Source: Patescibacteria group bacterium (GTDB lineage Bacteria > Patescibacteriota > Patescibacteriia > UM-FILTER-42-10). From it: a stretch of DNA of 64,000 bases. Made by a program: the position numbers and the translations under genes. The stretch spans positions 15,299 to 79,298 of the forward strand of contig JBAYGW010000001.1 of the NCBI GenBank assembly GCA_041666485.1, in the 5' to 3' direction. Positions 15,947 to 61,335 of this stretch are shown in pieces (positions within the stretch are counted from its first letter, which is position 1; every line of letters starts with the position of its first letter). Under the pieces are notes generated by a model. It did not search any database. It was given only the letters and a program-made list of their open reading frames with translations, and was not told where the DNA came from.

Positions 15947-17002
15947 TTACTTTAAATATGTATCTTCCTGAGTTGAAAGAACAAACAGATCTTTCACTGA
16001 GTCAATATCCTCCAATATTAAGCCAGTACCCCGGACAACAGCGGTTAATGGATCATCAATTATGTGAACAGGAATTCTGACCTCTTCTTGAATCGCTTTA
16101 TCCAAACCCCTGAGCAATGCTCCGCCTCCGGATAAGACAATTCCTCTTTCATAGATATCCGCTACTAATTCCGGCGGAGTCGCTTCAATTGTATTTTTAA
16201 TATTTTCAATAAATAATCTCACGGTTCTGGCCAGAGCTTCCTGCAGTTGAGCGGAATTAATGATTACTTCTTTCGGCAAACCGGTTATTAAATCTCTTCC
16301 GCGCATTTTTGTCTCCCGAATTTCTTTCTCAGGATACGCAGATCCGATTTCAATTTTGATCTGTTCGGCGGTTCTTTCGCCAAGCAATAAATTAAACTTA
16401 TCACGGGCATACTGAATAATATTACTGTCCAGTTCATTACCAGCTACCCGCAATGATTTCCAGGTTACAATACCTCCCAAAGAAATCACGGCAATCTCGG
16501 TGGTGCCGCCGCCGATATCCACAATAAAGTTTCCAGTGGAAGTCTGAATCGGCAACCTGGCTCCTACGGCGGCCGCCATCGGCTCTTCAATCAGAAAAAC
16601 CTGTCTGGCTCCAGCATTCAATGCGGCGTCTTCAACCGCCTTGCGCTCCACTTCCGTAACGCTCATAGGAATCCCGATTACTACCCTTGGTCTTGGAAGG
16701 ATTGAGAACGATTCCCGATGAACCTTTTCAATAAAATGTTTAAGCATTTTTTCTGTTACTTCAAAATCAGAAATTACGCCGTCCGCCAACGGTCTGGTTG
16801 CGACAATATGAGCGGGTGTTTTTCCGATCATGTTTTTTGCGTCATTGCCAACCGCCAGGATCTGGTCCGTTCGGACATTGATCGCAACAATTGAAGGTTC
16901 GTTAATTACTATCCCCTTATCTTTTACATACACCAAAGTATTGGCCGTTCCAAGGTCAATGCCAATATCTTGTGAGAATCTTCCGAATAAAGAATTAAAC
17001 AT
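15947..17002 (-). CDS. mreB: Rod shape-determining protein MreB (actin homolog)
   Basis: DIGIDLGTANTLVYV..., IVDIGGGTTEIAVISLGG, and full actin-fold phosphate and adenosine motifs. Confidence 0.9.
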   Translation of the reverse strand: MFNSLFGRFSQDIGIDLGTANTLVYVKDKGIVINEPSIVAINVRTDQILAVGNDAKNMIGKTPAHIVATRPLADGVISDFEVTEKMLKHFIEKVHRESFSILPRPRVVIGIPMSVTEVERKAVEDAALNAGARQVFLIEEPMAAAVGARLPIQTSTGNFIVDIGGGTTEIAVISLGGIVTWKSLRVAGNELDSNIIQYARDKFNLLLGERTAEQIKIEIGSAYPEKEIRETKMRGRDLITGLPKEVIINSAQLQEALARTVRLFIENIKNTIEATPPELVADIYERGIVLSGGGALLRGLDKAIQEEVRIPVHIIDDPLTAVVRGTGLILEDIDSVKDLFVLSTQEDTYLK

Positions 17003-23318: not shown

Positions 23319-24323
23319 TTATTTTGTTTCTAATATACTGCGCTTATAGGAATCCAAATTTTCCAGGGCAATTCCCGTACCTCTCACAACCGAAAGTAAC
23401 GGCTCGTCGGCGACATATGAAGGAACACCGGTGGTTCTTGTGAGCAGTTTATCAATATTTCTTAGTAAACCTCCGCCGCCGCTAATTACAATTCCACGGT
23501 CAATAATATCAGCGGCAAGTTCCGGAGGCGTATCTTGAAGCACGTCCTTGACCGCCAGTACAATACCTCTCAATTCTTCTTCAATAGCTTCAGTAACATC
23601 ATCACTGGTCGCGGTGATTGTGCGCGGTAGTCCGGTAACAATATCACGACCTCTGATATCGCTCGTCAGCTTTTCCGTCATTGGTAACGCGGATCCGATA
23701 TTTATTTTTAATAATTCAGCGGTCTTTTCACCAATTGCCAAGTTATATTTTTTTCTGATGTATTCCGCGATTGCGTTATCAAATTTATTACCGCCGATTC
23801 TTACTGAAGTATTGGTGACCATTCCGCCAAGTGAAATTACAGCTACCTCTGATGTTCCTCCTCCGATATCTATGATCATATGGCCAGATGCCGAACCGAT
23901 CGGAATGTTTGAACCGATCGCCGCGGCAATTGGTTCCTTGATAATATAAGCGGCCTTTGCCCCGGCTTGTAATGTTGCGTCAATCACCGCACGGCGCTCA
24001 GTGGAGGTAATTCCGGCGGGAACAGCAATCATCACTTCCGGACGAAACAGACGGACCCCACCCAATGCTTTGTTAACAAAATATCTCAGCATGCTTTCAG
24101 TAGTCTTGTAATCGGCGATTACGCCGTCCTTTAACGGTCGTGATGCGACTATCGTATCGGGCGTTCTGCCCAGCATCTCATTTGCTTCATTTCCTACTGC
24201 TAGGACTCTTTTATCAGAAATTGAAATAGCCACTACTGAAGGTTCATTTATTACAATACCGCGCTTTGGTACGTAAACCAGCGTATTTGCAGTTCCTAAA
24301 TCTATTCCAATTTTTCTAGACAT
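23319..24323 (-). CDS. Second MreB-family actin homolog (MreB/Mbl paralog)
   Basis: GIDLGTANTLVYVPKRGIVINEPSVVAI and IIDIGGGTSEVAVISLGG, about 60% identical to the mreB at 15947-17002. Its start overlaps the upstream gene's stop by 1 nt. Confidence 0.85.
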   Translation of the reverse strand: MSRKIGIDLGTANTLVYVPKRGIVINEPSVVAISISDKRVLAVGNEANEMLGRTPDTIVASRPLKDGVIADYKTTESMLRYFVNKALGGVRLFRPEVMIAVPAGITSTERRAVIDATLQAGAKAAYIIKEPIAAAIGSNIPIGSASGHMIIDIGGGTSEVAVISLGGMVTNTSVRIGGNKFDNAIAEYIRKKYNLAIGEKTAELLKINIGSALPMTEKLTSDIRGRDIVTGLPRTITATSDDVTEAIEEELRGIVLAVKDVLQDTPPELAADIIDRGIVISGGGGLLRNIDKLLTRTTGVPSYVADEPLLSVVRGTGIALENLDSYKRSILETK

Positions 24324-48358: not shown

Positions 48359-50137
48359 CTAAACTAATATTGCCTTAATTCTCCGAATTCCGGTAGAAAC
48401 TGCCTGTTCCTTTATAATTTTGAAGCTACCAAGTTCTTTTGTATTCGTTACGTGCGGTCCGCCACATATTTCCATACTGAAATCGCCTATTTCGTATACT
48501 TTAACCCTCTCGCCATATTTTGATTCAAAAAGTCCGATTGCGTTCATTTTTTTAGCTTCCTCAAGAGATATTTCTGTGAATTTTACCGGCAATTCCTTCT
48601 GTATCTGTTCATTTACGAGCCTCTCAACACTATCAAGCTCTTCTTCCGTCACCTTTCTCGGATGCGTAAAATCAAATCTCAGACGTTCTGAAGTAATATT
48701 GCTACCTTTTTGCGCGACATGATCGCCCAAAACAGTGCGAAGCGCTTTGTGCAGCAGGTGCGTTGCTGTATGCAGTCTTACGGTCTCACTGGAATGATCT
48801 ACCAATCCGCCTGTAAACTTTTTTTCCGCACCCTTCCGAGAGAGTTGTTGGTGTTTTTTGTATTCCACATCAAACTGTCCACGATCAATTTCAATATTAT
48901 GTTCTTTTAGCTCTTCTTCAATCATTTCAACCGGAAAACCGTACGTTTGGTACAAATAAAATGCTGTTTTACCTGAAAATATTTTCTTTTTTTGGTCAGA
49001 TATGCTAAAAATTCCCAACTCTTTTTCAAAGACTTTTAGACCATTTTGTAGTGTTTCAGTAAATTTTTTCTCCTCTTTTTCCATCTCATCACAAATAAAA
49101 TGCGCGCTAGCGATAATTTCAGGATACACCTCTTTGTGTGACTCAATTACTGCTTCTGCAATTTGCTTTGTAAAACTGGTTTGTATGCCTAATTTTCTAG
49201 CTTGTCTTATTGCTCTTCTAATCAATCTGCGCAATACATAACCTTGATCCATGTTGGAAGGTACTATACCTTCGTGCAAAATAAAGCAGGCGGATCTTAT
49301 ATGATCAACTACTATCCGCTCTGATCTGGTATTTGAATTGAGGGATAATTGGTGTAATTTTTCAAAAACTGGTCTGAAAATCTCAATATCAAACACAGAC
49401 TGCATACCGTTATATATTGCCACCATTCTTTCCATTCCCATGCCGGTATCAACATTTTTCTGCGGCATAGGTTCATACTCACCACTAATATTCTTTGTGT
49501 ATTCCATAAATACATCATTCCAAATTTCCACATATTTTCCGCACCCGCAACTCGGTTGACAATTCTCACTGCAGGGCTCTCGGTCAGTAATATAAAACAT
49601 TTCAGAATCCGGTCCACACGGTCCCGTAATCCCAGCGGGTCCCCACCAATTTTCATGTTTCCCATAAGCGTATATATTTTTTTCGGCAATTCCGTATTTT
49701 TTCCACAAAGCGTAACTATCCTTATCAAATGGCGCATCATCATCTCCTTTAAATACAGTAACAGCTAATTTCTCTATCGGGATATTCAGTTCCTTTGTCA
49801 AAAAATCAAAACTCCACTTTATCGCATCATCTTTAAAATAATCCCCTAATGACCAATTACCAAGCATTTCAAAAAACGTAAGATGCCAGTCATCTCCAAC
49901 TTCGTCAATGTCGCCAGTCCGAATACATTTCTGAAAGTCAGTCAGACGTTTGCCCTCAGGATGCGATTGACCCAGTAGATACGGTACTAACGGATGCATT
50001 CCCGCAGTAGTAAATAAAACCGACGGGTCATTTTCCGGAATCAAAGAAGCGGGCCTGATAATAGCATGCTTTTTCCTTCTAAAATATTCCAGAAATTTAT
50101 TTCGCAATTGAAGTTCATTCATATGATGATTGTACAA
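48359..50137 (-). CDS. alaS: Alanyl-tRNA synthetase, truncated form (catalytic + tRNA-binding + editing domains, no C-Ala domain)
   Basis: FTTAGMHPLVPYLLG, WGPAGITGPCGPDSEMFY, editing-domain HTATHLLH.. and CGGPHV. The protein ends at 592 aa. Confidence 0.85.
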   Translation of the reverse strand: MYNHHMNELQLRNKFLEYFRRKKHAIIRPASLIPENDPSVLFTTAGMHPLVPYLLGQSHPEGKRLTDFQKCIRTGDIDEVGDDWHLTFFEMLGNWSLGDYFKDDAIKWSFDFLTKELNIPIEKLAVTVFKGDDDAPFDKDSYALWKKYGIAEKNIYAYGKHENWWGPAGITGPCGPDSEMFYITDREPCSENCQPSCGCGKYVEIWNDVFMEYTKNISGEYEPMPQKNVDTGMGMERMVAIYNGMQSVFDIEIFRPVFEKLHQLSLNSNTRSERIVVDHIRSACFILHEGIVPSNMDQGYVLRRLIRRAIRQARKLGIQTSFTKQIAEAVIESHKEVYPEIIASAHFICDEMEKEEKKFTETLQNGLKVFEKELGIFSISDQKKKIFSGKTAFYLYQTYGFPVEMIEEELKEHNIEIDRGQFDVEYKKHQQLSRKGAEKKFTGGLVDHSSETVRLHTATHLLHKALRTVLGDHVAQKGSNITSERLRFDFTHPRKVTEEELDSVERLVNEQIQKELPVKFTEISLEEAKKMNAIGLFESKYGERVKVYEIGDFSMEICGGPHVTNTKELGSFKIIKEQAVSTGIRRIKAILV

Positions 50138-50153
50138 TATGCCATTGCTACTA

Positions 50154-51302
50154 TCAAGTAATCACTGCGCTGCCAATTAAGACCGTACTTTTATAAAAAA
50201 CGATTGATTGACCCGGGGTAATCGCTCTTTGAGGTTCAATAAATTCCGCGGATAATACATTATTACTGATTTTAGTTACTGTTAATTCCTGGTCCGTCTG
50301 CCGGTATCTGATTTTTGCCGTGCATTTAAGTGGAAATTTAGGCTCTTCGTCAATCCAATGAACATGGTCCGCAATCAGAGTTTTACAAAATAACTTTTGA
50401 TCATGACTCCCTTTGGCAACAATCAATTCATTTGCCTCAGTATCCTTTGTGACAACATAATAAGGAATTCCGCCGCCGATATTGATCCCTTTTCTCTGAC
50501 CGATAGTATAAAACGGCAGTCCGATATGATTGCCGATTATCTCTCCATCGGTTGTTCTAATTTTACCGGGGGTTTCCTTTAAACGTATCTTTAGAAATTC
50601 TTTAAGATCCACTTCGCCGATAAAACAAATCCCCTGGCTATCTTTTTTATCGTGTGTAGGTAAACCAATTTTCTTCGCAATTGATCTGACGGTTGTCTTC
50701 GTATATGCACCAATCGGAAATAATGTCTTGGAAAGCTGATGTTGATTAAGGGTGCAAAGAAAGTATGACTGGTCTTTATTAACATCCTTACCCTTTAATA
50801 ACTGATACGTGGTTTTACTCCTGCTATTTCTCACCTCCAGAATTTGAGCATAATGACCGGTTGCAATAAAATCCGCTCCCAGTGATAGGCACTTATCCAG
50901 GAATAATTTAAACTTTATCTCCTTATTGCACATGATATCGGGGTTAGGAGTAATCCCCTTCTTATAGCTTTTGTAAAAATAATCAATTACCTTCTCTTTA
51001 TACTCCTTTTCAAAATCAAAAGTATAAAATGGGATTTTAAGCTTAACGCAGACCTTTCTCATGTCCTCCTGGTCTGTAACCCATGGACAAAGATCAAATT
51101 TGTTTTTTAGTGCTTTCTCGTCACTTGGCATTGTCTCAGTCCAATTCTTCATAAAAACACCCACAACATCATAGCCGCGCTTTTTAAGCAAATAGGCGGC
51201 CACTGAGGAGTCAACCCCGCCGCTCATTCCGACAAACACCTTAAGTTTTTTAATCATTGTCTTTTTCATTTTCCCCCAATAACGCAAGTTTAGATATACC
51301 AA
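50154..51302 (-). CDS. mnmA: tRNA-specific 2-thiouridylase MnmA
   Basis: PP-loop VFVGMSGGVDSSVAAYLL and catalytic Cys residues. The true start is probably an internal Met near 51257-51269, because a terminator occupies 51301-51327. Confidence 0.9.
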   Translation of the reverse strand: MVYLNLRYWGKMKKTMIKKLKVFVGMSGGVDSSVAAYLLKKRGYDVVGVFMKNWTETMPSDEKALKNKFDLCPWVTDQEDMRKVCVKLKIPFYTFDFEKEYKEKVIDYFYKSYKKGITPNPDIMCNKEIKFKLFLDKCLSLGADFIATGHYAQILEVRNSRSKTTYQLLKGKDVNKDQSYFLCTLNQHQLSKTLFPIGAYTKTTVRSIAKKIGLPTHDKKDSQGICFIGEVDLKEFLKIRLKETPGKIRTTDGEIIGNHIGLPFYTIGQRKGINIGGGIPYYVVTKDTEANELIVAKGSHDQKLFCKTLIADHVHWIDEEPKFPLKCTAKIRYRQTDQELTVTKISNNVLSAEFIEPQRAITPGQSIVFYKSTVLIGSAVIT

Positions 51303-51327
51303 AAACCCGCCTGCATGGCAAGCGGGT
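51301..51327 (-). terminator. Rho-independent terminator ending the three-gene sigma-r4/HARE - membrane protein - ATPase operon
   Basis: The minus strand reads CCCGCUUGCC-AUG-CAGGCGGG (9-bp stem with 1 mismatch) followed by UUUUUGG. Confidence 0.6.
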
Positions 51328-51341
51328 CGTTAAAGTTTGGT

Positions 51342-53084
51342 CTACTGATCAAATTTAATACTCTGGCCGGGTTTTATCACGTGCTCAGAAACTGGATGTT
51401 GCGGAACACTGTCATCCGGGCTTTTTAGTTCAATTTTCGGCAGAGGTTTATTATTATTATTATTCACTTGATTGGTATAGTTGCTCTTCTTTTTCTTCTT
51501 CTTTCTTCTGCCGCCGTCATGATGCGGATTTGGATTTGACGATGTATTTCTTTTTGTCACGTCACTAAAAGATATCGGGCCTTGCTGCAAAGCATCATTT
51601 AAACGTATCTCCTGCGGTGACTCATTAATTACTGGCTCTTTAATTTCACTCGGTGTTTCTACGGGCTGAGTTTTTGGTTCAATAATTTTCAAAACTGATT
51701 TTATCTTAGGTGCCTCGTTACTTTTTTCATGCTGGCTCTGCGCCGCTACGGTTTGTTTTGGACTTGCATTATCACTTTCATTTTCAGCAATACCTTTATA
51801 CATTTCTTCAACACCACTCCATCTTAGAATCTTATCTTCAACTACTTTTACCGGCCTGGCGTATCTTTCACGCGAAGAAACAATAATTTTGTCTAAATTA
51901 CCTGTCTCCCCCTGAATTGGCGGTAAAATTGTCGCGCTAAAAGGGGCGGATGCGACTCCGTCAATCATCAATTTCAAATATACATTGTACTTCGGCAGGT
52001 TTACCAGATCATTTAACATAAAATACGGCTCAAATTCCTTTTCCAAAAATTCAGCATCTTCAGCACCGACGCGGAAACAAATAATCGTTCCAACGTTTCC
52101 AAATACTGCCGCTTTCACCACGTCGCCAAGCTGTTCAATGTATTGATGAGCAATCGTAAGGTTTAGTCTGTATTTCCGCGCTTCTGAAAGTATATTTGCA
52201 AAGCTTTCCGTGGAGAAGTTCTGAAACTCATCAACATACAGATAAAAATCTTCTCTTGTTTCTTCTGGAATGTCCACACGACTCATTGCGGCCAATTGAA
52301 GTTTTGTAATCATCATAGCTCCAAGCAGTGCTGAATTTTCCTCCCCGATTCTACCCTTCGCCAGGTTCATTAAAAGAATTTTCTTTGTATCCATTATCAC
52401 CCTCATATCAATAGTACTCTTGGGCTGTCCGACAATATTTCTAATAATTGAGCTTGATAAAAATTGACCGACCTTATTTTGAATTGGTGATATTGCCTCT
52501 GTTCTGAAGCGCTCATTGTAATTTGCATATTCATCCACCCAGAATGCCTTAACAATCGGATCGGTCAGATTGGATACAATTTTTTTTCGGTAATTTTTAT
52601 CAACTAAAAGTCTGGTAATACCCAGTAAGGTACTGCCGGGATTTTCCAGCAAAGCAAGAATTGTATTCATTAAAATATATTCAAGCCTCGGCCCCCATGA
52701 ATCAGCCCATATTTTCTTAAAAACTCCTACCAGACCGGAAGCGATCAGATTTTTGTATTGCGGATTAACTTCTTCCAGTATATTAAAGGCGATGGGGTGT
52801 TCGGTATCGGAAGGATTAAAATACACGACATCATTTATTCTGTTGGATGGAATAAATTTAATCACCTTTTCCACTGATTCACCGTGCGGATCAACTAAAG
52901 CGACGCCCCGACCCCTGTGAATATCCGATATCACCATATTTTCAATACAATTGGATTTACCAACACCGGTTTTTCCAATTAAATAAACATGTCTTCTTCT
53001 ATCATCTTCTTTAATTCCAAACCTTACTCTCTTGTTACGAAAGTTAGTTTCGGCGAATACTGTTATATCGTTATAATCCGGCAT
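51342..53084 (-). CDS. TraD/TrwB/VirD4-like P-loop ATPase (coupling-protein family) lacking transmembrane segments
   Basis: Walker A HVYLIGKTGVGKSN, then VALVDPHGE (TrwB_AAD_bind-like pattern), then Walker B plus TraG-D_C-like FYLYVDEFQNFSTESFANILSEARKYRLNLTIAHQYIEQL. The C-terminal roughly 150 aa are low-complexity (RRKKKKKKSNYTNQVNNNNN). Confidence 0.7.
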   Translation of the reverse strand: MPDYNDITVFAETNFRNKRVRFGIKEDDRRRHVYLIGKTGVGKSNCIENMVISDIHRGRGVALVDPHGESVEKVIKFIPSNRINDVVYFNPSDTEHPIAFNILEEVNPQYKNLIASGLVGVFKKIWADSWGPRLEYILMNTILALLENPGSTLLGITRLLVDKNYRKKIVSNLTDPIVKAFWVDEYANYNERFRTEAISPIQNKVGQFLSSSIIRNIVGQPKSTIDMRVIMDTKKILLMNLAKGRIGEENSALLGAMMITKLQLAAMSRVDIPEETREDFYLYVDEFQNFSTESFANILSEARKYRLNLTIAHQYIEQLGDVVKAAVFGNVGTIICFRVGAEDAEFLEKEFEPYFMLNDLVNLPKYNVYLKLMIDGVASAPFSATILPPIQGETGNLDKIIVSSRERYARPVKVVEDKILRWSGVEEMYKGIAENESDNASPKQTVAAQSQHEKSNEAPKIKSVLKIIEPKTQPVETPSEIKEPVINESPQEIRLNDALQQGPISFSDVTKRNTSSNPNPHHDGGRRKKKKKKSNYTNQVNNNNNKPLPKIELKSPDDSVPQHPVSEHVIKPGQSIKFDQ

Positions 53085-54504
53085 TTGTTAAATCGTCATC
53101 ATTAATTATTTCTATAGGAAGATTTTCCGGTATCCCCGCTCTTGGAACGGCCGGCGCACCAGAGGCTGACCTACCTGGCCTTTGCGGAGATATTCCGGAA
53201 GATGAAAATGCTTCTCTTGGCAATGTTGCCGGCGCACCACCTTTGCGGACTTCCGTTCTCTGCACCGGCGGGACTGTGATAGTTGCGATCGGGAAATGAT
53301 AAATACTCGCCAACTCTTCAATATTTAAAATGAATCCTGTTCCCATGCCCAAGTGATTGGCGCGTTTTTTATATGCTCTCAGAATTTTTTTCTTCTTTAA
53401 TGCAACACGCTTTTCAACCCGCCAGTAATCCGCTTTTGTCTTTGTCCTTTTGTGCGGTTTAAACGCATTCAAATTAAGAGTGTTGTACTGAAACAAAGCG
53501 CCTAATACCGGGCTGATGCCTCTGTTTTTATCAAAGATTTCTTTTTTACCAACATAGACAAGCCTGATTTTAGTTCTAAATGCTATTTTGGTCATTTTTT
53601 CCTGTATCGCCTCAATAACACTCCTGGCTCCCGGGGTTAAAAATTGCATTTCACTCTTTGCTTTGGTATCTGCTTTGCTGGTATCAGTACTTGATGCCCC
53701 GCCAAGAACCTGATTAACCGCCTCGTCACCAAAACCCTTCAGAGTACTTGTCAACGGCGAAAAAACTCCTTTTTTCTGTGCTGATTTTTCTCCGGCTAAT
53801 TTTTTGACCAACTGTGAGGCATTTTCCGTCCAGGAAGAATTTGCGGGTGTTATGACAATTTGAAGCCACGTTTGTTCACCCGGTTGCAAACGGGATAAAG
53901 CTTCCAATATTGATGCCATCGGATCGGCAAATGTCTGACTTAAAGTATGTTCAAAATTCTTATAGGTACGTATAGGATATGCTTCTTTTTTTGCCAGTGT
54001 AAATTCGGTACCCCATAGATCATATTCATCATTTGGAAATTTATTTTCCACTGAATCCGTATAATCACCCACCTCCGTTATTTCCGCATCCGGGTATTGG
54101 GCATAAATCGCCGATTCAATCAAATCTCTGTTGCTTTTGTCTGACCTGATCAGATATTGAATATATCCGTCAATACTGACTAATTCAAGCGAATAGCGTC
54201 CCTGGACTTTGCCCAGCCAATAACGTTCGTATTTATTACCCTTTGCCTCAATTGCATATAGATGCGCAAATATCTGTTCAACCGCAACCAGCGACTGCTC
54301 ATTTTCTCTTGGTATATCCAGTGCCAATAAAACCGGTTCCTGTGCGTCCCTATATCTTTGCCTTGCGCGCTCCAACCTCGCAATATATAGGCCGATTATC
54401 AAAAGGACTACCAGGGCAATCCAGCCACCATTCACAAAAATCCACCATGCAGCGGCAAGCGGATTCTGTACACCCATAGATGTAAAATCTAAAGAGATTT
54501 CCAT
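53071..54504 (-). CDS. Membrane-anchored protein (single N-terminal TM) with a Pro/Gly/Ser/Arg-rich C-terminal tail. No family recognised.
   Basis: TM LAAAWWIFVNGGWIALVVLLIIGLYIA, then a roughly 350-aa globular region, then a basic low-complexity tail. Its end overlaps the start of the ATPase gene by 14 nt. Confidence 0.55.
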   Translation of the reverse strand: MEISLDFTSMGVQNPLAAAWWIFVNGGWIALVVLLIIGLYIARLERARQRYRDAQEPVLLALDIPRENEQSLVAVEQIFAHLYAIEAKGNKYERYWLGKVQGRYSLELVSIDGYIQYLIRSDKSNRDLIESAIYAQYPDAEITEVGDYTDSVENKFPNDEYDLWGTEFTLAKKEAYPIRTYKNFEHTLSQTFADPMASILEALSRLQPGEQTWLQIVITPANSSWTENASQLVKKLAGEKSAQKKGVFSPLTSTLKGFGDEAVNQVLGGASSTDTSKADTKAKSEMQFLTPGARSVIEAIQEKMTKIAFRTKIRLVYVGKKEIFDKNRGISPVLGALFQYNTLNLNAFKPHKRTKTKADYWRVEKRVALKKKKILRAYKKRANHLGMGTGFILNIEELASIYHFPIATITVPPVQRTEVRKGGAPATLPREAFSSSGISPQRPGRSASGAPAVPRAGIPENLPIEIINDDDLTNAGL

Positions 54505-54510
54505 TTTAAG

Positions 54511-55668
54511 CTACTGATTAGGGATTGTTTCAGATACTTCCTGTTTAAGCGCATTGTGATTTAAAGTATAGCGTTTATCCGGAAGTTTAGTAAATTTAGT
54601 TTTATCTGTCAGCGCCAAATGGATGGTGTTTTTTCTTACAACCCTCTGGTCCAACACTCTGCGTACTAGCTCATCCCTAGTCAGCGGCTCGCTGGCTTTT
54701 TCCAGTATCTTAATCAGAACATCAGAAACCACGCCCGGCTTGTATCCCCATTCCTCTAATGCATAAATCCCGCGTCCAACCAAAACAAAATCATTATTTA
54801 ATATAAGTTCATTATGCACAGTCGGAGGATATGCTTTACGGCGGTCAAACTTAACTTTATTGATCAGTTCGGTAATATCATTGAAATGCAAGGGCTTACC
54901 CTCCTTTTTCAAAACCAAGTATATCTTATCTTTCATCCGTTTCGGATTAATTGACCCCCATTTCGCTAAACCATACTCATCAAAAGGATTACTATCAATT
55001 TTTTTACTCAATGTAATGTAGGAGTGAATACCTTCATCCGTCAGTAATTCTTTTTTATTGGCGTAGTATTCCGTGTGATGGAATTTGTACAAAAGCTCAT
55101 CCAGTTTCATCGGCTTGCCTTCCTTTTCCAGGATCTGTACAAGCTGATCAATTGTTTCATTAACGAAATCCAAAGATACGTGAGGTAATCCCCAGGATTT
55201 TGATACAGATAGTGATGCCGGGATACGCACAATTTTCATGGAAATCAATTCCTCCAGGATAAACACCGCGCAATTATTATTTAACGGGTTATCGGACGCA
55301 AAATTAAGCAACTCATGCAACAGCGAATGTTCGTCCATGATTCCACCATTATGCCCCAAAACATTTGAAATAGTATGTTCCAATTCTGAGGACATTTTAC
55401 TGAATTCTCTCAACCCTTTTATTTTTTTGATTGCCGAATTCTCTATCTGCCGAATTCGCTCACGAGTCACATTATAAGCCTTACCGATCGCCTCCAGGGT
55501 CTCTTTTGCTTGCCCACTCAAGCCAAAACGACGCCTCAAAACATCCTCTTCCTTATTTGTCAGATATTTAAGTAATGAAGAGACTGTATCACTGGGACTA
55601 AATCCCTCTATTTCCGCCTCCTGTTTTGAACTTATTACCTTATCTAGAATTGAATTTTGGTCTGTCAT
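54511..55668 (-). CDS. DNA-binding protein: sigma-70 region 4 HTH followed by three HARE-HTH-like winged-helix repeats
   Basis: LTNKEEDVLRRRFGLSGQAKETLEAIGKAYNVTRERIRQIENSAIKKIK parallels sigma70 region 4.2 (VTRERIRQIE is identical). Three repeats then follow of the form x-LxKEGKP-[ML]-xxxE[LI]..-G..W (IDQLVQILEKEGKPMKLDEL..YGLAKWG; KDKIYLVLKKEGKPLHFNDI..GIYALEEWG; SDVLIKILEKASEPLTRDEL..), like the RNAP delta-subunit N-terminal HARE-HTH. Confidence 0.6.
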   Translation of the reverse strand: MTDQNSILDKVISSKQEAEIEGFSPSDTVSSLLKYLTNKEEDVLRRRFGLSGQAKETLEAIGKAYNVTRERIRQIENSAIKKIKGLREFSKMSSELEHTISNVLGHNGGIMDEHSLLHELLNFASDNPLNNNCAVFILEELISMKIVRIPASLSVSKSWGLPHVSLDFVNETIDQLVQILEKEGKPMKLDELLYKFHHTEYYANKKELLTDEGIHSYITLSKKIDSNPFDEYGLAKWGSINPKRMKDKIYLVLKKEGKPLHFNDITELINKVKFDRRKAYPPTVHNELILNNDFVLVGRGIYALEEWGYKPGVVSDVLIKILEKASEPLTRDELVRRVLDQRVVRKNTIHLALTDKTKFTKLPDKRYTLNHNALKQEVSETIPNQ

Positions 55669-55697
55669 AATTGTTATATAATTATTCCAATATCTTC

Positions 55698-55726
55698 AGT
55701 ATAGCATAAGCTTGAATAAGTGTCAA
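55698..55726 (-). promoter_or_regulatory. Sigma70-type promoter (TTGACA-17-TATACT) for the three-gene operon
   Basis: The minus strand reads TTGACActtattcaagcttatgcTATACT, about 30 nt upstream of the ATG at 55668. Confidence 0.45.
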
Positions 55727-55782: not shown

Positions 55783-56679
55783 TTAATTTTTTGAAAACTT
55801 GTTATGCCAAAGCAATAACAGAGGGCTTGCGATAAAAATTGATGAATATGTACCAACGACTATTCCGATGATTAAAGCAAGTACAAAATACTTCAGCGAT
55901 TCACCTCCAAAAAGATACAAAGCAATTAATACTAAAAGTGTTGTAAATGATGTATTAATTGATCTGACCATAGTTTCGTTAATTGATTTATTGATTGTTT
56001 CCTCAAAGTCAGAGCTTGAACCTTTAACTATGCCTTCCCTGATTCTGTCATAAACAACAATTGTATCATGAACAGAAAAGCCTAGAATTGTCAGTAAAGC
56101 TGTAACAAATAATGCATCTAGTTGAACCCCTAAAAAGTATCCAAGCGCGGCAAAAACTCCTGTGACAATCAAAATATCGTGTGCCAGCGCAATTATCGCG
56201 CATACTCCAAATATATAAGCCGGAACCGGTCCTCCTGAGATCTTTCTAAATGCATAGGACAAATAGGCAATAATCGCCGCCATTACAAATAGGACACCGA
56301 CAATTGTCTTCTGCTTAAGCTCGTTACCAACCGTAGGACCAACTGACTCAAAACTCAGCTCATTTACTGTTCCGTAGTTCTCATTCAATTTGGCAAGAAT
56401 TTGTACTCTTGTATCATTCTCAATGGTTTTCATTCTTATCATAATATCCTTGTCCTTTACAGGCTGAACCACGACATCTCCAAGATTGAATTCATCAAGA
56501 ATCGCTTGTATTTCCTGCGCATTTGGTCTGACTCCGTCAAATTGTACCTGCAGTAACGATCCACCACTGAAATCAATGCCGAGCTTCAGTCCGCCCATGG
56601 AAATAAATACAATACTTGCCGTAACCAGCAACATTGAAATTGCATACCATACTTTTCTAGTGCCCAGAATATTATACAT
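55783..56679 (-). CDS. secF: Protein translocase subunit SecF
   Basis: GIDFSGGSLLQVQF and six TM helices. Confidence 0.9.
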   Translation of the reverse strand: MYNILGTRKVWYAISMLLVTASIVFISMGGLKLGIDFSGGSLLQVQFDGVRPNAQEIQAILDEFNLGDVVVQPVKDKDIMIRMKTIENDTRVQILAKLNENYGTVNELSFESVGPTVGNELKQKTIVGVLFVMAAIIAYLSYAFRKISGGPVPAYIFGVCAIIALAHDILIVTGVFAALGYFLGVQLDALFVTALLTILGFSVHDTIVVYDRIREGIVKGSSSDFEETINKSINETMVRSINTSFTTLLVLIALYLFGGESLKYFVLALIIGIVVGTYSSIFIASPLLLLWHNKFSKN

Positions 56680-56687
56680 ATTTGTAA

Positions 56688-58352
56688 CTATTTATTTTTT
56701 ACACCAAACAACCAAAGTCCGTGCCATTTTTTGATGGCTGAGATTCTTAAAAAGTTTCTGGTAATGGTAATTGCGGAAAACATGCTGATCAATATCCCCA
56801 TTGCCAATGTTATTGCAAAACCTTTAATCAAGCTCGTTCCAAACCAGGTAAGAATCAAACAAGTGATTAGAGAAGATACGTTTGAATCGCGAATAGACGG
56901 CCAAGCACGTTTAAAACCGTCCTCAATCGCGCTGAGTAACGGTTTACCTAATCTCAACTCTTCTTTCATTCTTTCAAAAATAAGCACATTGGCATCAACA
57001 GCCATACCGATTGACAGTATGAATCCGGCGATACCCGCTAACGTAAGCGTCACCGGCCAAAGCTTGAATAAGGCTAGTGCTAACAATGAATAGATAAGCA
57101 GGGCAATCACAGACAATAACCCCGGTAGACGATAATAAATTATCATAAACAAAGCAACGAGAACTAGCCCAACGATACCCGCAAACAGACTTCTTTCAAT
57201 TGATTCTTGACCAAGCGTTGCCCCAATGTTTTGCTGATTAAGCAGTGATATCGGGATAGGCAGCGCTCCAGAGTTGAGTCTTCTGGTTAAAATTTTTGCT
57301 TCTTCCAAGGTAAAGCTCCCGGTAATTGACGCCTCCCCCGTTGTTATTTCTGATTGGACAACCGGAATACTGATTGGTGCGTGATCAAGATATATTGCAA
57401 CAGGTTTCCCCAAATTTCGTTTGGTAACTTCTGCAAACAACTTGGTGCCCTCATCATTGAATTTCAAACTAATCTCAGGCTGTCCGGTTGATTGATCAAA
57501 CTGAACCTGGGCGCTTTGCAAGTGTTTGCCTGATAAACCGGTATTCACATAATTCGTTGAGTCTGCGGCTTCCTTTGATTGAGTCTGGATCAATATTTGA
57601 CGTGCTCTTGCCTTTTCTTCCTCCACACCCTGGTCATTAACAGTCGTTGTTTTACTTTCCAGCTTAATAATATGGTATCCGTATTGGGTTTGGACTAACT
57701 CCGGATATACTTTTCCAACCTCCGCTTTTTCAAACACTACTTCATCAAATTCAGGCACCATTGCCCCTCTTCCGAACTCCCCTAAATCGCCGCCATTTTT
57801 GGACGAGGAGCCCTCACTTTTTTCATCAGCTAAAGTTGCAAAATCGGTATTGGGATCAAGCGCTGAAAGCAAAATTTCTTCAGCTCTAATTTTAGCATCA
57901 GCATTATACGCATCCATTGCCTGAGTTTGCTCTGCAGTTAGTTCAACTGGCGCCTGCTCTCTAAACTCCAATAAAGGTGTTTCACCGATCATTTGGATAG
58001 CCTGCGTAATGTCAGATACCCCAGGAAGCTCAACAATCACGCGATAATCATCACCAGATTTATTAGTTTGCACAATTGGCTCCGATACGCCAAAAGAATT
58101 TACTCTTCTCTCTATTACATCTCGCACGCCTTCTATAGCATCCGGTTTTTCTGCAGCAGCAATACCACTGGTATCAGCCTGGTAAACTAAATGCGTCCCA
58201 CCTTGTAAATCCAAGCCAAGGTGAACTTTTATCTCTTTAAAATAACTTCCGATTCGTATATTTGGACCCTTTGGCCAATCAACCAACCCAGCCAAAACAA
58301 CCAGCACTAATATCAGGGCGGAGCTGAGCCAGAGTCTTTTGCGTATTGTCAT
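56688..58352 (-). CDS. secD: Protein translocase subunit SecD
   Basis: GLDLQGGTHLVYQAD, with periplasmic P1 and C-terminal TM bundle. Confidence 0.9.
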   Translation of the reverse strand: MTIRKRLWLSSALILVLVVLAGLVDWPKGPNIRIGSYFKEIKVHLGLDLQGGTHLVYQADTSGIAAAEKPDAIEGVRDVIERRVNSFGVSEPIVQTNKSGDDYRVIVELPGVSDITQAIQMIGETPLLEFREQAPVELTAEQTQAMDAYNADAKIRAEEILLSALDPNTDFATLADEKSEGSSSKNGGDLGEFGRGAMVPEFDEVVFEKAEVGKVYPELVQTQYGYHIIKLESKTTTVNDQGVEEEKARARQILIQTQSKEAADSTNYVNTGLSGKHLQSAQVQFDQSTGQPEISLKFNDEGTKLFAEVTKRNLGKPVAIYLDHAPISIPVVQSEITTGEASITGSFTLEEAKILTRRLNSGALPIPISLLNQQNIGATLGQESIERSLFAGIVGLVLVALFMIIYYRLPGLLSVIALLIYSLLALALFKLWPVTLTLAGIAGFILSIGMAVDANVLIFERMKEELRLGKPLLSAIEDGFKRAWPSIRDSNVSSLITCLILTWFGTSLIKGFAITLAMGILISMFSAITITRNFLRISAIKKWHGLWLFGVKNK

Positions 58353-58431: not shown

Positions 58432-59868
58432 CTAGTTACGAATAATAACCGGAATCCCCAAATTTGCCCATTGATAAACCCAGGCCGAATCGGTGCGGGA
58501 CATATTGATACACCCATGACTCATACGGTGACCGAAGTTATTATGCCAATATGTGCCATGGATCGTGTATGCCCCATAAAAAGACAGGACAAACGGAACA
58601 TCCTTGAGATCGTAGTTATCCGGATTATCCGGACCATAAAACCAGCTCATATCGGTTGATTCACGCTTCCAATATACATTATATTCACCGATAGGTGTGT
58701 CGTGTTTACCCTTGATTCCTGAGGAAATAAGAAATGAGTCAACCAATTTATCGTTTTCATAGGCGTATAATTTCTGTTCGGTAAGATTCACCTCAATGTA
58801 TTTGTAATAATCCGGCCTGTTCACTTCTTGCCATGCACTAGGCCCGGTTATAATGTCGTCTATTCCATCTCCAGTAATATCACCCACAGCAACGTTCACG
58901 CCACCTCTAAAATCTTTTTCGTAAGCAAAAAATGAATTCGCGACAAGGGTGCCATTAGCTTCAAACATCCTGATATGTGGACCACCTGCTCTCGTTGGAA
59001 CAGTTACCACCTCATCAAAACCGTCATTGTCAACATCGCCGGCAGCAACCCGGGTTCCACCCTGAAAATAATCAGGATATGAATAAAATTCTCCTAAGAT
59101 TGTCCTTTTGGCATCAAACTTATATACTTTTGTCCAGGTTTTACCGAATTTTTCCACTGCCATAACAATCTCTTCCTCGGGACCCCCATCAAAATTTCCA
59201 ACAGCCAGTGAGACCCCTCCGCGATCGCCTGAACGAAATGGAAGGAAATCAATTCCCTGAAAATCCCCCAGATAATTAAACACGCGAACATGCGCTCCGC
59301 CTGACGAACCGGGTGCTGCTACAATTTCATCCTTTCCGTCGCCATTAACATCACCGACTGCAACATTTACTCCACCACGCATGTCTTCGGCAAACGCAAA
59401 AAAACCTGGGGTAAATTTCGGATTGCCGTTAACATCAAATATACGGACATGTGGTCCACCGCCGGAACCTGAACCAGTTACTATTTCAATTTCTCCATCA
59501 CCGTTTAAATCACCGCATGCCACCGTAATACCGTTTCTAAAAGATTCCGCATAGGCCAAAAAACCGGTTACTTTAAATGAGTAGGGCCAGATTATTTTTA
59601 CATTCGGACCGCCGCCCGGTCCGGCACCGACGATAATTTCATTTTTACCGTTACCGTCCACATCACACGTTGCTACAGAAACACCCCCCTCAAAACTCTC
59701 GGGATAGACATTTAAACTTCTTCTAATATCTCCAGCAGAACTGAAAACCCGTATTTCGGGAGCGCGGGTTTTGGTATAAGCAAATGAAGTAAATGGTATT
59801 ACTACTAATATAGTTGCGGTAAATAGTATCTTCTTTAGCATACGTATATTGTAACAAAATATATGCAA
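58432..59868 (-). CDS. Secreted FG-GAP-like repeat beta-propeller fused to L,D-transpeptidase (YkuD) domain
   Basis: A signal peptide, then about six repeats F-AY-x-F-GG-[SN]VA-GD[VL][ND]GDG-x-[DE]EI[VI]-G-GGGP[HN]V[RK][IV]F. The C-terminus is HGTYWHNNFGHRMSHGCINM (catalytic His/Cys of YkuD). Confidence 0.75.
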   Translation of the reverse strand: MHIFCYNIRMLKKILFTATILVVIPFTSFAYTKTRAPEIRVFSSAGDIRRSLNVYPESFEGGVSVATCDVDGNGKNEIIVGAGPGGGPNVKIIWPYSFKVTGFLAYAESFRNGITVACGDLNGDGEIEIVTGSGSGGGPHVRIFDVNGNPKFTPGFFAFAEDMRGGVNVAVGDVNGDGKDEIVAAPGSSGGAHVRVFNYLGDFQGIDFLPFRSGDRGGVSLAVGNFDGGPEEEIVMAVEKFGKTWTKVYKFDAKRTILGEFYSYPDYFQGGTRVAAGDVDNDGFDEVVTVPTRAGGPHIRMFEANGTLVANSFFAYEKDFRGGVNVAVGDITGDGIDDIITGPSAWQEVNRPDYYKYIEVNLTEQKLYAYENDKLVDSFLISSGIKGKHDTPIGEYNVYWKRESTDMSWFYGPDNPDNYDLKDVPFVLSFYGAYTIHGTYWHNNFGHRMSHGCINMSRTDSAWVYQWANLGIPVIIRN

Positions 59869-59907: not shown

Positions 59908-61335
59908 CTAATCCTTTACAATCACCGTCGTTCCTACATCCGCCCAATTATACAACTTTTCAGCCGGACCAACGCCTAGTCGTACACAGCCATGTGAAAC
60001 TCTGACGCCGAGATGATTTTGTCCTTCTTTATAACCATTGGCCCACTCGGGTAATTCGTGCAGTCCATATCCACGTGAATCAAACTGCATCCAAAATGGC
60101 ATGTAAAGATTATAAGCACCTGAATATGCTTTTCTATTTTTATTCTGGATGTTAAACGTCCCAAGCGGTGTCGGCATTGACCACTTACCGGTTGAAACCT
60201 GAGCTGTATCAATCAAGTAACCGTTTTCATAATATTTCAGAATTTGATCAGAAATATCAACCTCAATATATTTTTTCAAGTCGGTTCGCCCTTCAGTAGA
60301 TCGTTTACTCGGTGCAACAATTATTTCGTCAATTGAATCATTATCAACATCGCCGGCAGCTAGCATTACACCGCCACGAAATTCTTCTTCAAACGCGAAA
60401 ATAGAATCCGGGTGAGCATAGCCATAAGCTTCAAAATAACGGACGTGTGGGCCACCGCCGGTATTGGCAGCGACAACAATCTCATCTAAACCATCCTGAT
60501 CAACATCCGCATTAGTAAGGTTGATACCTTTTTTGAATGTTTCCGGGAAAGCTCTGAACATACCAAGTACAGTTTTTTCCGGATTGGTTTTATAAACTTT
60601 CACCCAAGCTTCATCTGAAGACTGAACACCAAATATTAATTCTTCCTCCGCACCACCGTCCACATTTCCGCATGCAATACTAACCCCGCCATGATAGGTT
60701 GATGCAAATGGAAAATAATCTATTCCCATATAAGTTCCGTCTTTTTCAAAAACACGAACATGCGGTCCTCCACCAATTCCTGCACCCGTTACAATTTCCT
60801 TATCGCCGTCACCGTTTACGTCACACGTTGCAATATTAACCCCGCCCATAAAACTTTCCTGGTAGGCAAAAAATCCCAAGGTAAATTTTGGATTTCCTTT
60901 TCCATCAAAAACTCTTACATGAGGTGTCGCACCGAAACGCGTGCTCACAACAATTTCATCTTTCCCGTCACCGTCCAGATCACCTGATGCCACATTGACT
61001 CCTTTACTGTAATTTGTACCATAAGCAAAAAATCCAGAAATAAATATTCCTTCGGAATTAAATATTTTTATGTGTGGTCCGCCGCCGGGACCGGGAGCAA
61101 CTACAATTTCTTCTTTACCATCGCCGTTTACATCACCCGTAGCTACTGACGCTCCTCCTTTAAAACTTTCATCATAAGCGAGGAACGACTTTTCCTGAAC
61201 ATTTTTGTCCGATGAGAATATTCGGACGTCGGGTGCACGGTACTCCGTGGCAGATGCAATTTTCGGTAACAAAAAAACAGTACTAGCAAGCACTGCCAAC
61301 GTTAAAAATTTATTCTTTGGGTGTTGTATTTTCAT
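59908..61335 (-). CDS. Secreted FG-GAP-like repeat beta-propeller fused to L,D-transpeptidase (YkuD) domain, paralog 2
   Basis: Same architecture as the first paralog: repeats GDVNGDGKEEIVVAPGPGGGPHIKIF etc., and a C-terminus GLHELPEW..GVRVSHGCVRLG. Confidence 0.75.
   Translation of the reverse strand: MKIQHPKNKFLTLAVLASTVFLLPKIASATEYRAPDVRIFSSDKNVQEKSFLAYDESFKGGASVATGDVNGDGKEEIVVAPGPGGGPHIKIFNSEGIFISGFFAYGTNYSKGVNVASGDLDGDGKDEIVVSTRFGATPHVRVFDGKGNPKFTLGFFAYQESFMGGVNIATCDVNGDGDKEIVTGAGIGGGPHVRVFEKDGTYMGIDYFPFASTYHGGVSIACGNVDGGAEEELIFGVQSSDEAWVKVYKTNPEKTVLGMFRAFPETFKKGINLTNADVDQDGLDEIVVAANTGGGPHVRYFEAYGYAHPDSIFAFEEEFRGGVMLAAGDVDNDSIDEIIVAPSKRSTEGRTDLKKYIEVDISDQILKYYENGYLIDTAQVSTGKWSMPTPLGTFNIQNKNRKAYSGAYNLYMPFWMQFDSRGYGLHELPEWANGYKEGQNHLGVRVSHGCVRLGVGPAEKLYNWADVGTTVIVKD

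Follow-up and report, generated by a model that had tools for sequence, protein, structure and literature searches.

Three co-oriented genes form a discrete operon

What is the role of an operon that combines a DNA-binding protein, a membrane protein, and an ATPase resembling the coupling proteins TraD and VirD4 on a Patescibacteria chromosome? The question is raised by three co-oriented minus-strand open reading frames (ORFs) in a 64-kb window, the window being the whole stretch of DNA that was analyzed (64,000 nucleotides). Here the first gene is called HTH, the middle gene MID, and the last gene ATP. The operon and its immediate surroundings contain the following features, from upstream to downstream:

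55783..58352, minus strand: secD-secF, directly upstream of HTH, a conserved syntenic neighbor (ORFs and synteny)
55698..55726, minus strand: predicted sigma-70-type promoter, TTGACA-17-TATACT with an extended -10 TG (pattern match)
54511..55668, minus strand: HTH gene, 385 aa, sigma-region-4/HARE-HTH protein (ORF, Pfam, and homologues)
53071..54504, minus strand: MID gene, 477 aa, DUF8128 (PF26449), membrane anchor with a predicted VirB4-like N-terminal-domain fold
51342..53084, minus strand: ATP gene, 580 aa, soluble VirD4/TrwB-type P-loop ATPase
51304..51328, minus strand: intrinsic terminator, a GC-rich stem of 11 bp and a subsequent T run

All three ORFs are located where a preliminary description of this DNA had placed them, and each has thousands of homologues with E values near 0, indicating that HTH, MID, and ATP are real genes. 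Only 6 nt separate the HTH stop from the MID start, a spacing that suggests translational coupling, while MID and ATP overlap by the 14 nt described previously. The predicted promoter matches the consensus at 11/12 positions and is one of three sites within 13 kb that score at least 11/12, with the total number of promoter-like sites in those 13 kb equal to the shuffle expectation. The terminator has a predicted folding energy of -22.7 kcal/mol (z -5.0), a stability that none of 200 shuffled sequences reaches. The near-consensus promoter and strong terminator of the preliminary description are thus both recovered and, together with the 6-nt gap and the 14-nt overlap, define a discrete unit that could be co-transcribed. 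The hairpin in the spacer between secF and HTH is weak, and therefore read-through from secDF is also possible.

ATP is flanked by MID on one side and mnmA on the other. Domain libraries were scanned with the three operon genes, and the remaining ORFs of the 64 kb, judged by inspecting their translations, resemble ordinary housekeeping genes. In agreement with the earlier reading, no ORF of the window was recognized by this inspection as encoding VirB4, VirB6, a pilin, or a relaxase. An Rfam search of the window gave no match.

The operon is vertically inherited with conserved synteny

The gene order secD-secF-(HTH)-DUF8128-ATPase recurs across Patescibacteria species genomes, and is identical in the complete genome CP060223.1. 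ATP adjoins MID in 50 of 70 loci, with about 20 of the 70 MID loci having no ATP beside them. HTH is found in the neighborhood of MID in 39 of 75 loci and is missing in the other 36, in 28 of which secF abuts MID directly. The full trio is present in 36/66 loci, so that the synteny of the three genes extends to relatives. The housekeeping character of the neighborhood stands, but it is more than the backdrop it was taken for: secF lies next to HTH or MID in 39 of 69 evaluable loci, making secDF part of the conserved synteny. When compared across the same loci, the ATP core has a median identity of 65.5%, higher than SecD (52.4%), SecF (47.0%), AlaS (48.7%), or MnmA (46.1%). A scan of 2.9 million viral contigs found the unit to be essentially absent, with one fused-type fragment only. 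These sequence comparisons among species-representative Patescibacteria genomes indicate that the unit is vertically inherited with conserved synteny, and bear out the earlier view that it is not the remnant of a conjugative element. Conservation this high is unexpected for a conjugative coupling protein.

ATP resembles VirD4 and TrwB rather than FtsK or HerA

Several features of ATP can be placed by comparison with the coupling protein TrwB:

52953..52976, minus strand: Walker A GKTGVGKS, residues 37-44, aligning with the TrwB P-loop
52389..52763, minus strand: residues 108-232, a wholly helical insertion that separates Walker A from Walker B and corresponds to the coupling-protein all-alpha domain
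52227..52244, minus strand: Walker B YLYVDE, residues 281-286, aligning with TrwB
51345..51794, minus strand: disordered C-terminal tail, residues 431-580 (pLDDT <50), containing a basic RRKKKKKK patch and ending in the motif KPGQSIKF

The sequence VDPHGE in ATP also aligns with VDPNGD in TrwB. ATP matches the Pfam families TrwB_AAD_bind (36.5 bits, cutoff 20.5), T4SS-DNA_transf (22.6 bits, cutoff 20.1), and TraG-D_C (22.0 bits, exactly at the cutoff of 22.0), as well as DUF87 (28.2 bits, cutoff 23.2), a domain common to the whole superfamily. In a sequence search of the PDB, the sole significant matches were the coupling proteins TrwB (E 1.2e-6) and DotL (E 1.5e-3). ATP therefore has the P-loop domain and the inserted all-alpha domain of a type IV coupling protein, as the preliminary description had proposed, but lacks an N-terminal anchor in the same chain and, within the 64 kb, an association with T4SS or relaxase genes. 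The earlier statement that ATP has no transmembrane segment also holds, with no hydrophobic window scoring >1.6; the anchor is encoded separately by MID. ATP falls far below the NCBIfam equivalogs for coupling proteins (best 48 bits against a cutoff of 250, for conju_CD1115) and the TraD models (15-44 bits against cutoffs of 366-647), and below the VirB4-type Pfam models AAA_10 (14.1 bits, cutoff 27.5) and P-loop_TraG (17.0 bits, cutoff 25.8). The terminal KPGQSIKF motif is kept in most of 26 homologues, and in relatives a CxxC-x17-CxxC zinc ribbon takes its place.

The preliminary description had named FtsK and HerA as possible alternative affiliations. A complex of MID and ATP would be a hexameric-type ATPase anchored in the membrane and belonging to the FtsK-HerA superfamily. 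Given also its extreme conservation and housekeeping context, it could be imagined to act at the division septum like FtsK, as a translocase that segregates chromosomes or resolves dimers. However, ATP does not carry the FtsK_SpoIIIE motor domain, and we consider this role very unlikely. ATP likewise scores 13.2 bits against a cutoff of 970 for the HerA equivalog NF040819, with no NurA-type nuclease adjacent. On these domain models ATP is VirD4/TrwB-like, and not FtsK- or HerA-like. An anti-phage defense ATPase of the DptH, MADS mad8, or HerA type is hardly credible: the unit keeps a stable chromosomal position with very high conservation, nearly the whole phylum has homologues, the adjacent genes include no recognized partner nuclease or methylase, and MID has no match in PADLOC. 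Neither such a stable, conserved position nor such a broad distribution is usual for defense islands.

MID is probably the detached N-terminal half of a coupling-type ATPase

The assignment of MID to DUF8128 (PF26449) comes from precomputed records, which list the family for the identical protein (P0001) and almost every homologue. Our own Pfam and NCBIfam scans of MID found no family, the Pfam release used presumably being older than PF26449. MID has three regions of interest:

54388..54444, minus strand: single transmembrane helix, residues 21-39 (Kyte-Doolittle maximum 2.31)
53302..54336, minus strand: cytoplasmic globular region, residues 57-401, consisting of two alpha/beta domains with a disordered linker at 243-283
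53116..53130, minus strand: conserved C-terminal motif P-x-N-L-P, residues 459-463, after a disordered tail

Structures of MID and ATP were predicted as single chains. The AlphaFold2 (AF2) model of MID has a helix at residues 15-54, and basic residues that follow the transmembrane segment suggest an N-out/C-in topology by the positive-inside rule. P459, N461, and P463 of the C-terminal motif are invariant in 29/29 sequences. In the predicted structure, the cytoplasmic domain has the fold of the N-terminal domain of the VirB4/TraC family. This similarity is not apparent at the level of sequence: a profile search of the PDB with MID returned nothing at E values up to 10, hhalign against two VirB4-like proteins (from Embleya and phage G, gp155) gave probabilities <1%, and the VirB4-family Pfam models CagE_TrbE_VirB, TraC_F_IV, AAA_10, and P-loop_TraG have no match in MID.

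The relationship between MID and ATP is supported by proteins in which both modules occur in one polypeptide. A single profile, phrog_5156, spans residues 88-375 of MID and residues 12-423 of ATP. Fused proteins include gp156 of Bacillus phage G (825 aa; hhalign 97.3%, Foldseek E 2e-16), an ORF of the Priestia megaterium plasmid pFDU301A (98.5%, E 3e-15), and a Patescibacteria paralog (L044:14226-16766; 99.4%, E 3e-21) whose C-terminal half has the Pfam matches of coupling proteins. Phage JL, which also encodes both modules in one chain, is linked to MID by Foldseek, while hhalign of MID against the equivalent protein gp91 of its close relative CP-51 was not significant. The phage and megaplasmid proteins, from Bacillota phages and megaplasmids, are 23-38% identical to ATP and differ from the split MID and ATP in being fused; in both phage G and Priestia a gene for a VirB4-like ATPase lies close to the fused gene. 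An Embleya plasmid carries in a row the genes for PrgI, a VirB4-like ATPase, a coupling protein of 812 aa, Replic_Relax, and NlpC/P60, an arrangement that speaks for an ancestry in conjugation, and the match of MID to the N terminus of this coupling protein (probability 40%, E 3e-4) is only suggestive. The best plasmid match of ATP, a 395-aa product from Sulfitobacter (39% identity), is encoded alone among transposases without MID, and was uninformative.

The earlier proposal that the middle gene supplies a membrane anchor is upheld by its one transmembrane segment and by the natural fusions, but MID is a detached N-terminal ATPase half with a DUF8128 domain rather than a generic anchor supplied in trans. 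The architecture is distinct from that of known coupling proteins. TrwB of R388, VirD4/Cag-beta, and DotL have a simple two-helix anchor, whereas here a separate gene encodes a VirB4-like N-terminal domain of ~350 aa. VirB4/TrwK similarly combine an N-terminal domain with a C-terminal ATPase, but by sequence MID and ATP are not members of that family, missing its Pfam cutoffs. Coupling complexes with separate membrane partners, DotL-DotM among them, resemble ATP and MID in joining a coupling-type ATPase to a membrane protein from another gene. DotL itself, however, retains a transmembrane anchor, and DotM is not known to be related to DUF8128. The findings suggest a distinct lineage of coupling proteins, marked by a VirB4-like N-terminal domain, in Patescibacteria, Bacillota, probably Actinomycetota, and Bacillus phages.

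HTH combines RNA-polymerase-binding modules

HTH contains two recognizable domains:

55417..55572, minus strand: sigma-70 region 4 domain, residues 33-84 (Pfam Sigma70_r4, E 1.3e-11)
54748..54936, minus strand: HARE-HTH winged-helix domain, residues 245-307 (Pfam HARE-HTH, E 2.1e-12)

The Pfam search thus supports the domain content proposed for the first gene. NCBI names the family 'sigma factor-like helix-turn-helix DNA-binding protein', and among the matches listed for its 5,709 homologues, all source names are Patescibacteria-type taxa. The motif TLEAIGKAYNVTRERIRQIE in region 4 is invariant across 23 homologues, region 4.2 being of the primary-sigma type, and in the PDB, region 4 best matches the corresponding fragments of primary sigma factors (E about 1e-11). 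Pfam gives Sigma70_r4 only, with no sigma region 2 found, and the NCBIfam sigma models cover only residues about 14-96 with scores far under their cutoffs. The HARE-HTH domain, nearly invariant in homologues, resembles the N-terminal domain of the RNA polymerase delta subunit, but lies at residues 245-307 in HTH instead of at the N terminus, and HTH scores 36.1 bits against the cutoff of 42 for the delta subunit model TIGR04567 (RpoE). HTH has no hydrophobic segment. Both a primary-sigma region 4 and a delta-like HARE-HTH are known RNA-polymerase-binding modules.

In Southlakia epibionticum, SEML1_0294 encodes the same combination of domains and is essential by Tn-seq, while the adjacent SEML1_0293 is dispensable (Wang et al, 2023; PMC10633639). 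The DNA-binding domains of the first gene stand, but HTH is probably more than the dedicated DNA-recognition subunit described earlier. These data make it quite possible, if short of probable, that the operon holds two unrelated things: a general, essential RNA polymerase accessory factor, and a split ATPase co-located with it by inherited gene order. The absence of HTH near nearly half of the MID genes, which also counts against a functional unit that includes HTH, fits this explanation, as does the invariant, primary-sigma-type region 4.2. Furthermore, the sigma-like proteins encoded near the fused genes of Bacillaceae are not homologous to HTH, and a link to HTH outside Patescibacteria therefore could not be shown. 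On the other hand, a sigma-r4/HARE-HTH gene lies directly upstream of a coupling-protein-like gene in sampled genomes of ABY1/Paceibacteria type and also in Saccharimonadia, the 6-nt spacing suggests translational coupling, and the tails of both MID and ATP carry conserved, putative docking motifs.

A proposed split translocase that may serve a chromosomal T4SS

We favor a model in which MID and ATP are probably one ATPase of the VirB4/VirD4 clade split in two, forming a membrane translocase that possibly serves a chromosomal T4SS. MID would supply the transmembrane helix, oriented N-out/C-in, together with a cytoplasmic domain like the VirB4 N terminus, and ATP a TrwB/VirD4-type nucleotide-binding domain, the all-helical insertion, and the long disordered basic tail with its docking motif. 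At the membrane the two could assemble into a hexameric NTP-driven translocase, the assembly that a single chain would provide in the fused homologues. This motor would deliver its substrate, probably nucleic acid or a nucleoprotein, to the envelope or through it. For this it may bind the chromosomal T4SS of monoderm type present in the lineage, or it may have been recruited to a function that does not involve a T4SS. HTH, presumably co-transcribed from its upstream position, would most likely have an essential role of its own at RNA polymerase or promoters, a role as adaptor for the motor being speculative. The apparent occurrence of the same architecture as one protein within a genuine monoderm conjugation cluster of Embleya, and Patescibacteria T4SS loci that have no coupling protein of their own, make substrate feeding the most likely job of the motor.

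In a survey of 3,035 Patescibacteria genomes, 5,713 VirD4-type homologues were found in 2,918, with only 148 near virB4 (PMC12102498). These orphan coupling-protein homologues, described in 2025, are thus more widespread than VirB4, which is present in 2,417 of the 3,035 genomes, and the excess of at least 501 may be explained in part by incomplete MAGs (PMC12102498). In Southlakia, the T4SS is essential and has no recognizable coupling protein, and SEML1_0294 and SEML1_0293 belong to families flagged 'core' and 'Patescibacteria-enriched' (PMC10633639). The system has thus not gone unnoticed, although our literature search gave nothing useful on PF26449, CPR HARE-HTH proteins, TrsD with a VirB4 N-terminal domain, or a Patescibacteria delta subunit. 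SEML1_0294 lies directly upstream of SEML1_0293 on the same strand, as HTH does of its partner genes, and SEML1_0293 shares TrwB_AAD_bind, TraG-D_C, and DUF87 matches with ATP. By this adjacency and Pfam pattern SEML1_0293 is a putative ortholog of ATP. At 921 aa, with its ATPase domain at 361-795, it is longer than the 580-aa ATP, and its anchor half is apparently fused. The genes upstream of the Southlakia pair encode an alpha/beta hydrolase and topA instead of secDF. The orthology is tempered by the presence in Patescibacteria of at least two types of coupling-protein-like paralogs, one of which, SEML1_0142, is essential.

Unlike other type IV coupling proteins, ATP has no recognized relaxase or T4SS genes nearby, is chromosomal and vertically inherited, and is much more conserved than nearby housekeeping genes. 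Several observations weigh against coupling to a T4SS: the 64 kb contain no recognized T4SS genes, the conservation is higher than expected of a conjugative coupling protein, coupling-protein homologues are more widespread than VirB4, and in Southlakia the T4SS is essential whereas SEML1_0293 is dispensable. The MID genes with no ATP beside them argue against the split-ATPase reading itself.

Some of the same evidence would fit a T4SS-independent DNA translocase for natural transformation or DNA scavenging, by uptake or export, in cells without nucleotide synthesis. Dispensability of SEML1_0293 is expected of a competence gene because the Tn mutants were made by transformation and competence is not needed afterwards (PMC10633639). 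The wider spread of coupling-protein homologues than VirB4, the basic tail of ATP and the zinc ribbon of its relatives, the presence of dprA and topA within five genes of SEML1_0293, and the comF, recG, and radA genes of ABY1-class T4SS loci are also consistent with this function. ATP further matches the N-terminal region of CedD, an archaeal DNA-import ATPase (NCBIfam, E 1.5e-7), but its score of 30.5 bits is far under the cutoff of 600, and inspection of the ORF translations of the 64 kb recognized no comEC, comF, or dprA. ComEC-type uptake is known to use other motors (ComFA, PriA, and RadA). We regard a DNA translocase of this kind as unlikely. Less likely still is a T4SS-independent machine peculiar to Patescibacteria in which a motor with a VirB4-like N-terminal domain, intermediate between VirB4 and VirD4, would move nucleic acid into or out of these nucleotide-auxotrophic cells while the essential HTH tethers it to promoter DNA or RNA polymerase through the C-terminal docking motifs.

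Patescibacteria, which rely on host cells, represent a large part of the diversity of bacteria. Their essential T4SS has no coupling protein in its own locus, yet a homologue is present elsewhere in 96% of surveyed genomes. Our analysis adds that this homologue is here a two-gene split enzyme, whose DUF8128 anchor half has a predicted VirB4-like fold. Its ATPase core is conserved above SecD, SecF, AlaS, and MnmA, and travels with the HTH gene and often with secDF. DUF8128 thereby gains a structural context, as a probable part of a motor that may feed substrates to the T4SS of these organisms.

Organization of the operon

The HTH-MID-ATP unit encodes, downstream of the helix-turn-helix gene HTH, a chromosomal ATPase of VirD4 type that is split between two genes: MID is a DUF8128 protein (PF26449), which supplies a VirB4-like N-terminal domain, and ATP is a VirD4/TrwB-type ATPase. 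The preliminary description had reported a self-contained operon of three co-oriented genes, and this observation was borne out as a whole, with all three ORFs recovered exactly, together with their spacing, promoter and terminator:

54511-55668, minus strand: HTH gene (ORF, 385 aa)
53071-54504, minus strand: MID gene (ORF, 477 aa)
51342-53084, minus strand: ATP gene (ORF, 580 aa)
55726-55698, minus strand: promoter TTGACA-17-TATACT with extended -10 TG (pattern match, upstream of HTH)
51328-51304, minus strand: intrinsic terminator downstream of ATP (-22.7 kcal/mol, z = -5.0)

A gap of 6 nt separates HTH from MID, and the MID and ATP reading frames share 14 nt. Near-consensus sites number three in 13 kb, the operon promoter among them, although promoter-like matches in total equal shuffle expectation; the stability of the terminator was matched by none of 200 shuffles. 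Between secF and HTH there is only a weak hairpin (z = 0.2), and therefore transcription from secDF may read through into the operon.

MID and ATP are two halves of one enzyme

A single PHROG profile of unknown function, phrog_5156 (824 positions), matches both proteins, with MID residues 88-375 corresponding to positions 63-330 and ATP residues 12-423 to positions 392-808. Bacillus phage G contributes gp156 (825 aa) to this profile, and phages CP-51, JL, and Shanette have member proteins as well. The MID profile aligns with the N-terminus of gp156 (hhalign 97.3%, E 2e-11), and the MID model matches the models of gp156 (Foldseek E 2e-16) and the JL protein (E 2e-14). An unannotated ORF of Priestia megaterium pFDU301A combines a transmembrane helix, a MID-like domain (hhalign 98.5%, E 3e-15), and an ATPase part with 38% identity in one frame. 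Within the Patescibacteria, a Magasanikbacteria locus encodes a fused paralog in which residues 45-406 match MID (99.4%, E 3e-21) and the C-terminal half contains coupling-protein Pfam domains:

L044:14226-16766, minus strand: fused DUF8128 and ATPase paralog, 846 aa, next to dnaX

An Embleya linear plasmid encodes an 812-aa coupling protein with a weakly MID-like N-terminus (E 3e-4) that keeps the ELAxxxHxP motif. Its gene is flanked by those for a Replic_Relax relaxase and a VirB4-like ATPase, and PrgI and NlpC/P60 are encoded nearby, which makes this a genuine monoderm conjugation cluster. These fused homologues from phages, Priestia, Magasanikbacteria, and Embleya identify MID as the detached N-terminal half of the ATPase, so that MID and ATP are one split enzyme. 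MID had been proposed as a membrane anchor supplied in trans; it is a membrane anchor, but not a separate partner. The architecture probably descended from monoderm conjugation machinery.

In phage G (gp155-gp156, L081:1196-5338) and pFDU301A (L084:294-8545) the fused enzyme lies near a gene for a VirB4-like (P-loop_TraG/AAA_10) ATPase, and no further type IV secretion system (T4SS) gene was recognized in the annotation and the few neighboring ORFs scanned. The neighbors of the fused gene in phage CP-51 bear the annotations "partition protein" and "replication initiation by nicking". At a distance of ~5 kb from its fused paralog, the Magasanikbacteria genome also carries DUF8128 alone, as a gene that follows secDF and has no adjoining ATPase gene, which means that at least two paralog types of the enzyme exist in Patescibacteria.

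MID and ATP both end in conserved short motifs that follow long disordered tails:

53116-53130, minus strand: PxNLP motif of MID, as (P)PxNLP[ITFV], residues 459-463 (29 of 29 homologues)
51345-51374, minus strand: KPGQx[IV][KR]F motif at the C-terminal end of ATP, preceded by a K/R patch (most of 26 homologues)

In other lineages, a CxxC-x17-CxxC zinc ribbon (PF23477) replaces the terminal KPGQ-type motif of ATP.

The unit is conserved and vertically inherited

With one genome per species, MID has at least 570 relatives, the best 80 loci of which were analyzed; by record title these belong to Kerfeld-, Buchanan-, Falkow-, Uhr-, Magasanik-, Moranbacteria, and other Patescibacteria. ATP follows MID in 50 of 70 evaluable loci and is not adjoining in ~20, while HTH precedes MID in 39 of 75, with secF directly abutting MID in 28 of the remainder. 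The neighborhood recurs as a complete trio in 36 of 66 loci and is linked to secDF in 39 of 69, with mnmA and alaS downstream in several. The order FG-GAP/YkuD, secD, secF, HTH, DUF8128, ATPase is identical in the complete genome CP060223.1. Across the same set of loci, the ATP core has a median of 65.5% identity to its window counterpart, compared with 52.4% for SecD, 47.0% for SecF, 48.7% for AlaS, 46.1% for MnmA, and ~39% for HTH and MID; ATP identity exceeds that of SecD in 26 of 29 loci. The MID profile had one match only in 2.9 million viral contigs. HTH-MID-ATP belongs to the chromosome, is inherited vertically under strong constraint, and is not a mobile-element remnant. On this point the earlier interpretation stands; it needs correction for the separate anchor and is partly supported overall.

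Many TPA MAG records titled "uncultured Gammaproteobacteria bacterium" (L001, L005, L009, L020, and others) carry the secDF-(HTH)-DUF8128-ATPase order; they resemble Patescibacteria-titled records in identity, and their titles look like mislabels.

The rest of the 64 kb resembles housekeeping genes on inspection of translations (domain scans covered the operon genes), including ribosomal proteins, MreB, cell-wall and glycosyltransferase genes, alaS, mnmA, and secDF, and base composition is uniform throughout. An Rfam scan of positions 1-64000 gave no family at gathering score, and hence no tRNA, riboswitch or leader RNA. Tandem paralogs with FG-GAP repeats and a YkuD (L,D-transpeptidase) domain (58432-59868 and 59908-61335) lie just upstream of secD, where CP060223.1 has one such gene. 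The alaS ORF (48359-50137) encodes only 592 aa, well below the ~870 aa typical of bacterial AlaRS. Two ORFs (15947-17002 and 23319-24323) appear MreB-like from their N-terminal sequences; genomes of this type are usually described from ultra-small cocci or rods.

HTH resembles sigma region 4

55417-55572, minus strand: Sigma70_r4 domain of HTH, residues 33-84 (Pfam)
HTH residues 245-307, minus strand: HARE-HTH domain (Pfam)

Against the PDB, HTH best matches primary sigma factors, in fragments of their region 4 (E ~1e-11); its region 4.2, of primary-sigma type, reads TLEAIGKAYNVTRERIRQIE and, like most of HARE-HTH, is invariant across 23 homologues. Region 2 was not found in HTH, which is therefore not a sigma factor, and its score as an RNA polymerase delta subunit fell below the family cutoff. 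HTH may serve RNA polymerase as an accessory factor specific to the lineage. Its domain pattern is shared by SEML1_0294 of Southlakia epibionticum (349 aa), which has Sigma70_r4 at 27-72, HARE-HTH at 225-283, and then winged domains, and which is essential (Wang et al. 2023, PMC10633639, Tables S1 and S2). A separate, essential function at RNA polymerase is the most likely one for HTH, which might also serve the motor.

Possible function of the split ATPase

Beyond the observed gene structure, folds, fusions, synteny, and constraint, we infer a mechanism for MID-ATP. MID, with an acidic N-terminus and a basic stretch past its helix, would insert N-out/C-in and bind the ATP protein; together the two would restore a hexameric ATPase anchored in the membrane, with the architecture of VirB4 and a sequence of VirD4 type. 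Its basic disordered tail, in place of which relatives have a zinc ribbon, could then engage substrate or partners, as could the terminal motifs. We favor a role in feeding substrate, most plausibly nucleic acid; the chromosomal T4SS of the lineage is a possible site. The Southlakia T4SS is essential and lacks recognizable coupling and relaxase proteins (PMC10633639). However, a 2025 survey counted 5,713 VirD4-type homologues, of which only 148 lie near virB4; they occur in 2,918 of the 3,035 Patescibacteria genomes surveyed, more than the 2,417 with VirB4 (PMC12102498). Unusually high conservation also speaks against this reading, as does the dispensability of SEML1_0293 (921 aa, TrwB_AAD_bind 402-719), directly downstream of SEML1_0294, although its normalized reads fell from 5,817 to 1,372 (PMC10633639). 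Southlakia has another gene of coupling-protein type, SEML1_0142 (1,019 aa), and this one is essential (PMC10633639). The main rival is DNA import or export independent of the T4SS, which fits the Southlakia Tn-seq outcome because the mutants were made by transformation.

SEML1_0293 and SEML1_0294 are both flagged "core family" and "Patescibacteria enriched", so that the enrichment of both families in the lineage is already on record (PMC10633639), as is the orphan coupling protein (PMC12102498). In the searchable literature, neither the split architecture nor the VirB4-like fold of DUF8128 was found described, nor was the synteny with HTH and secDF. Identity and lineage-wide presence are partly published, while architecture and synteny provide a testable handle on a conserved unknown of the Patescibacteria.
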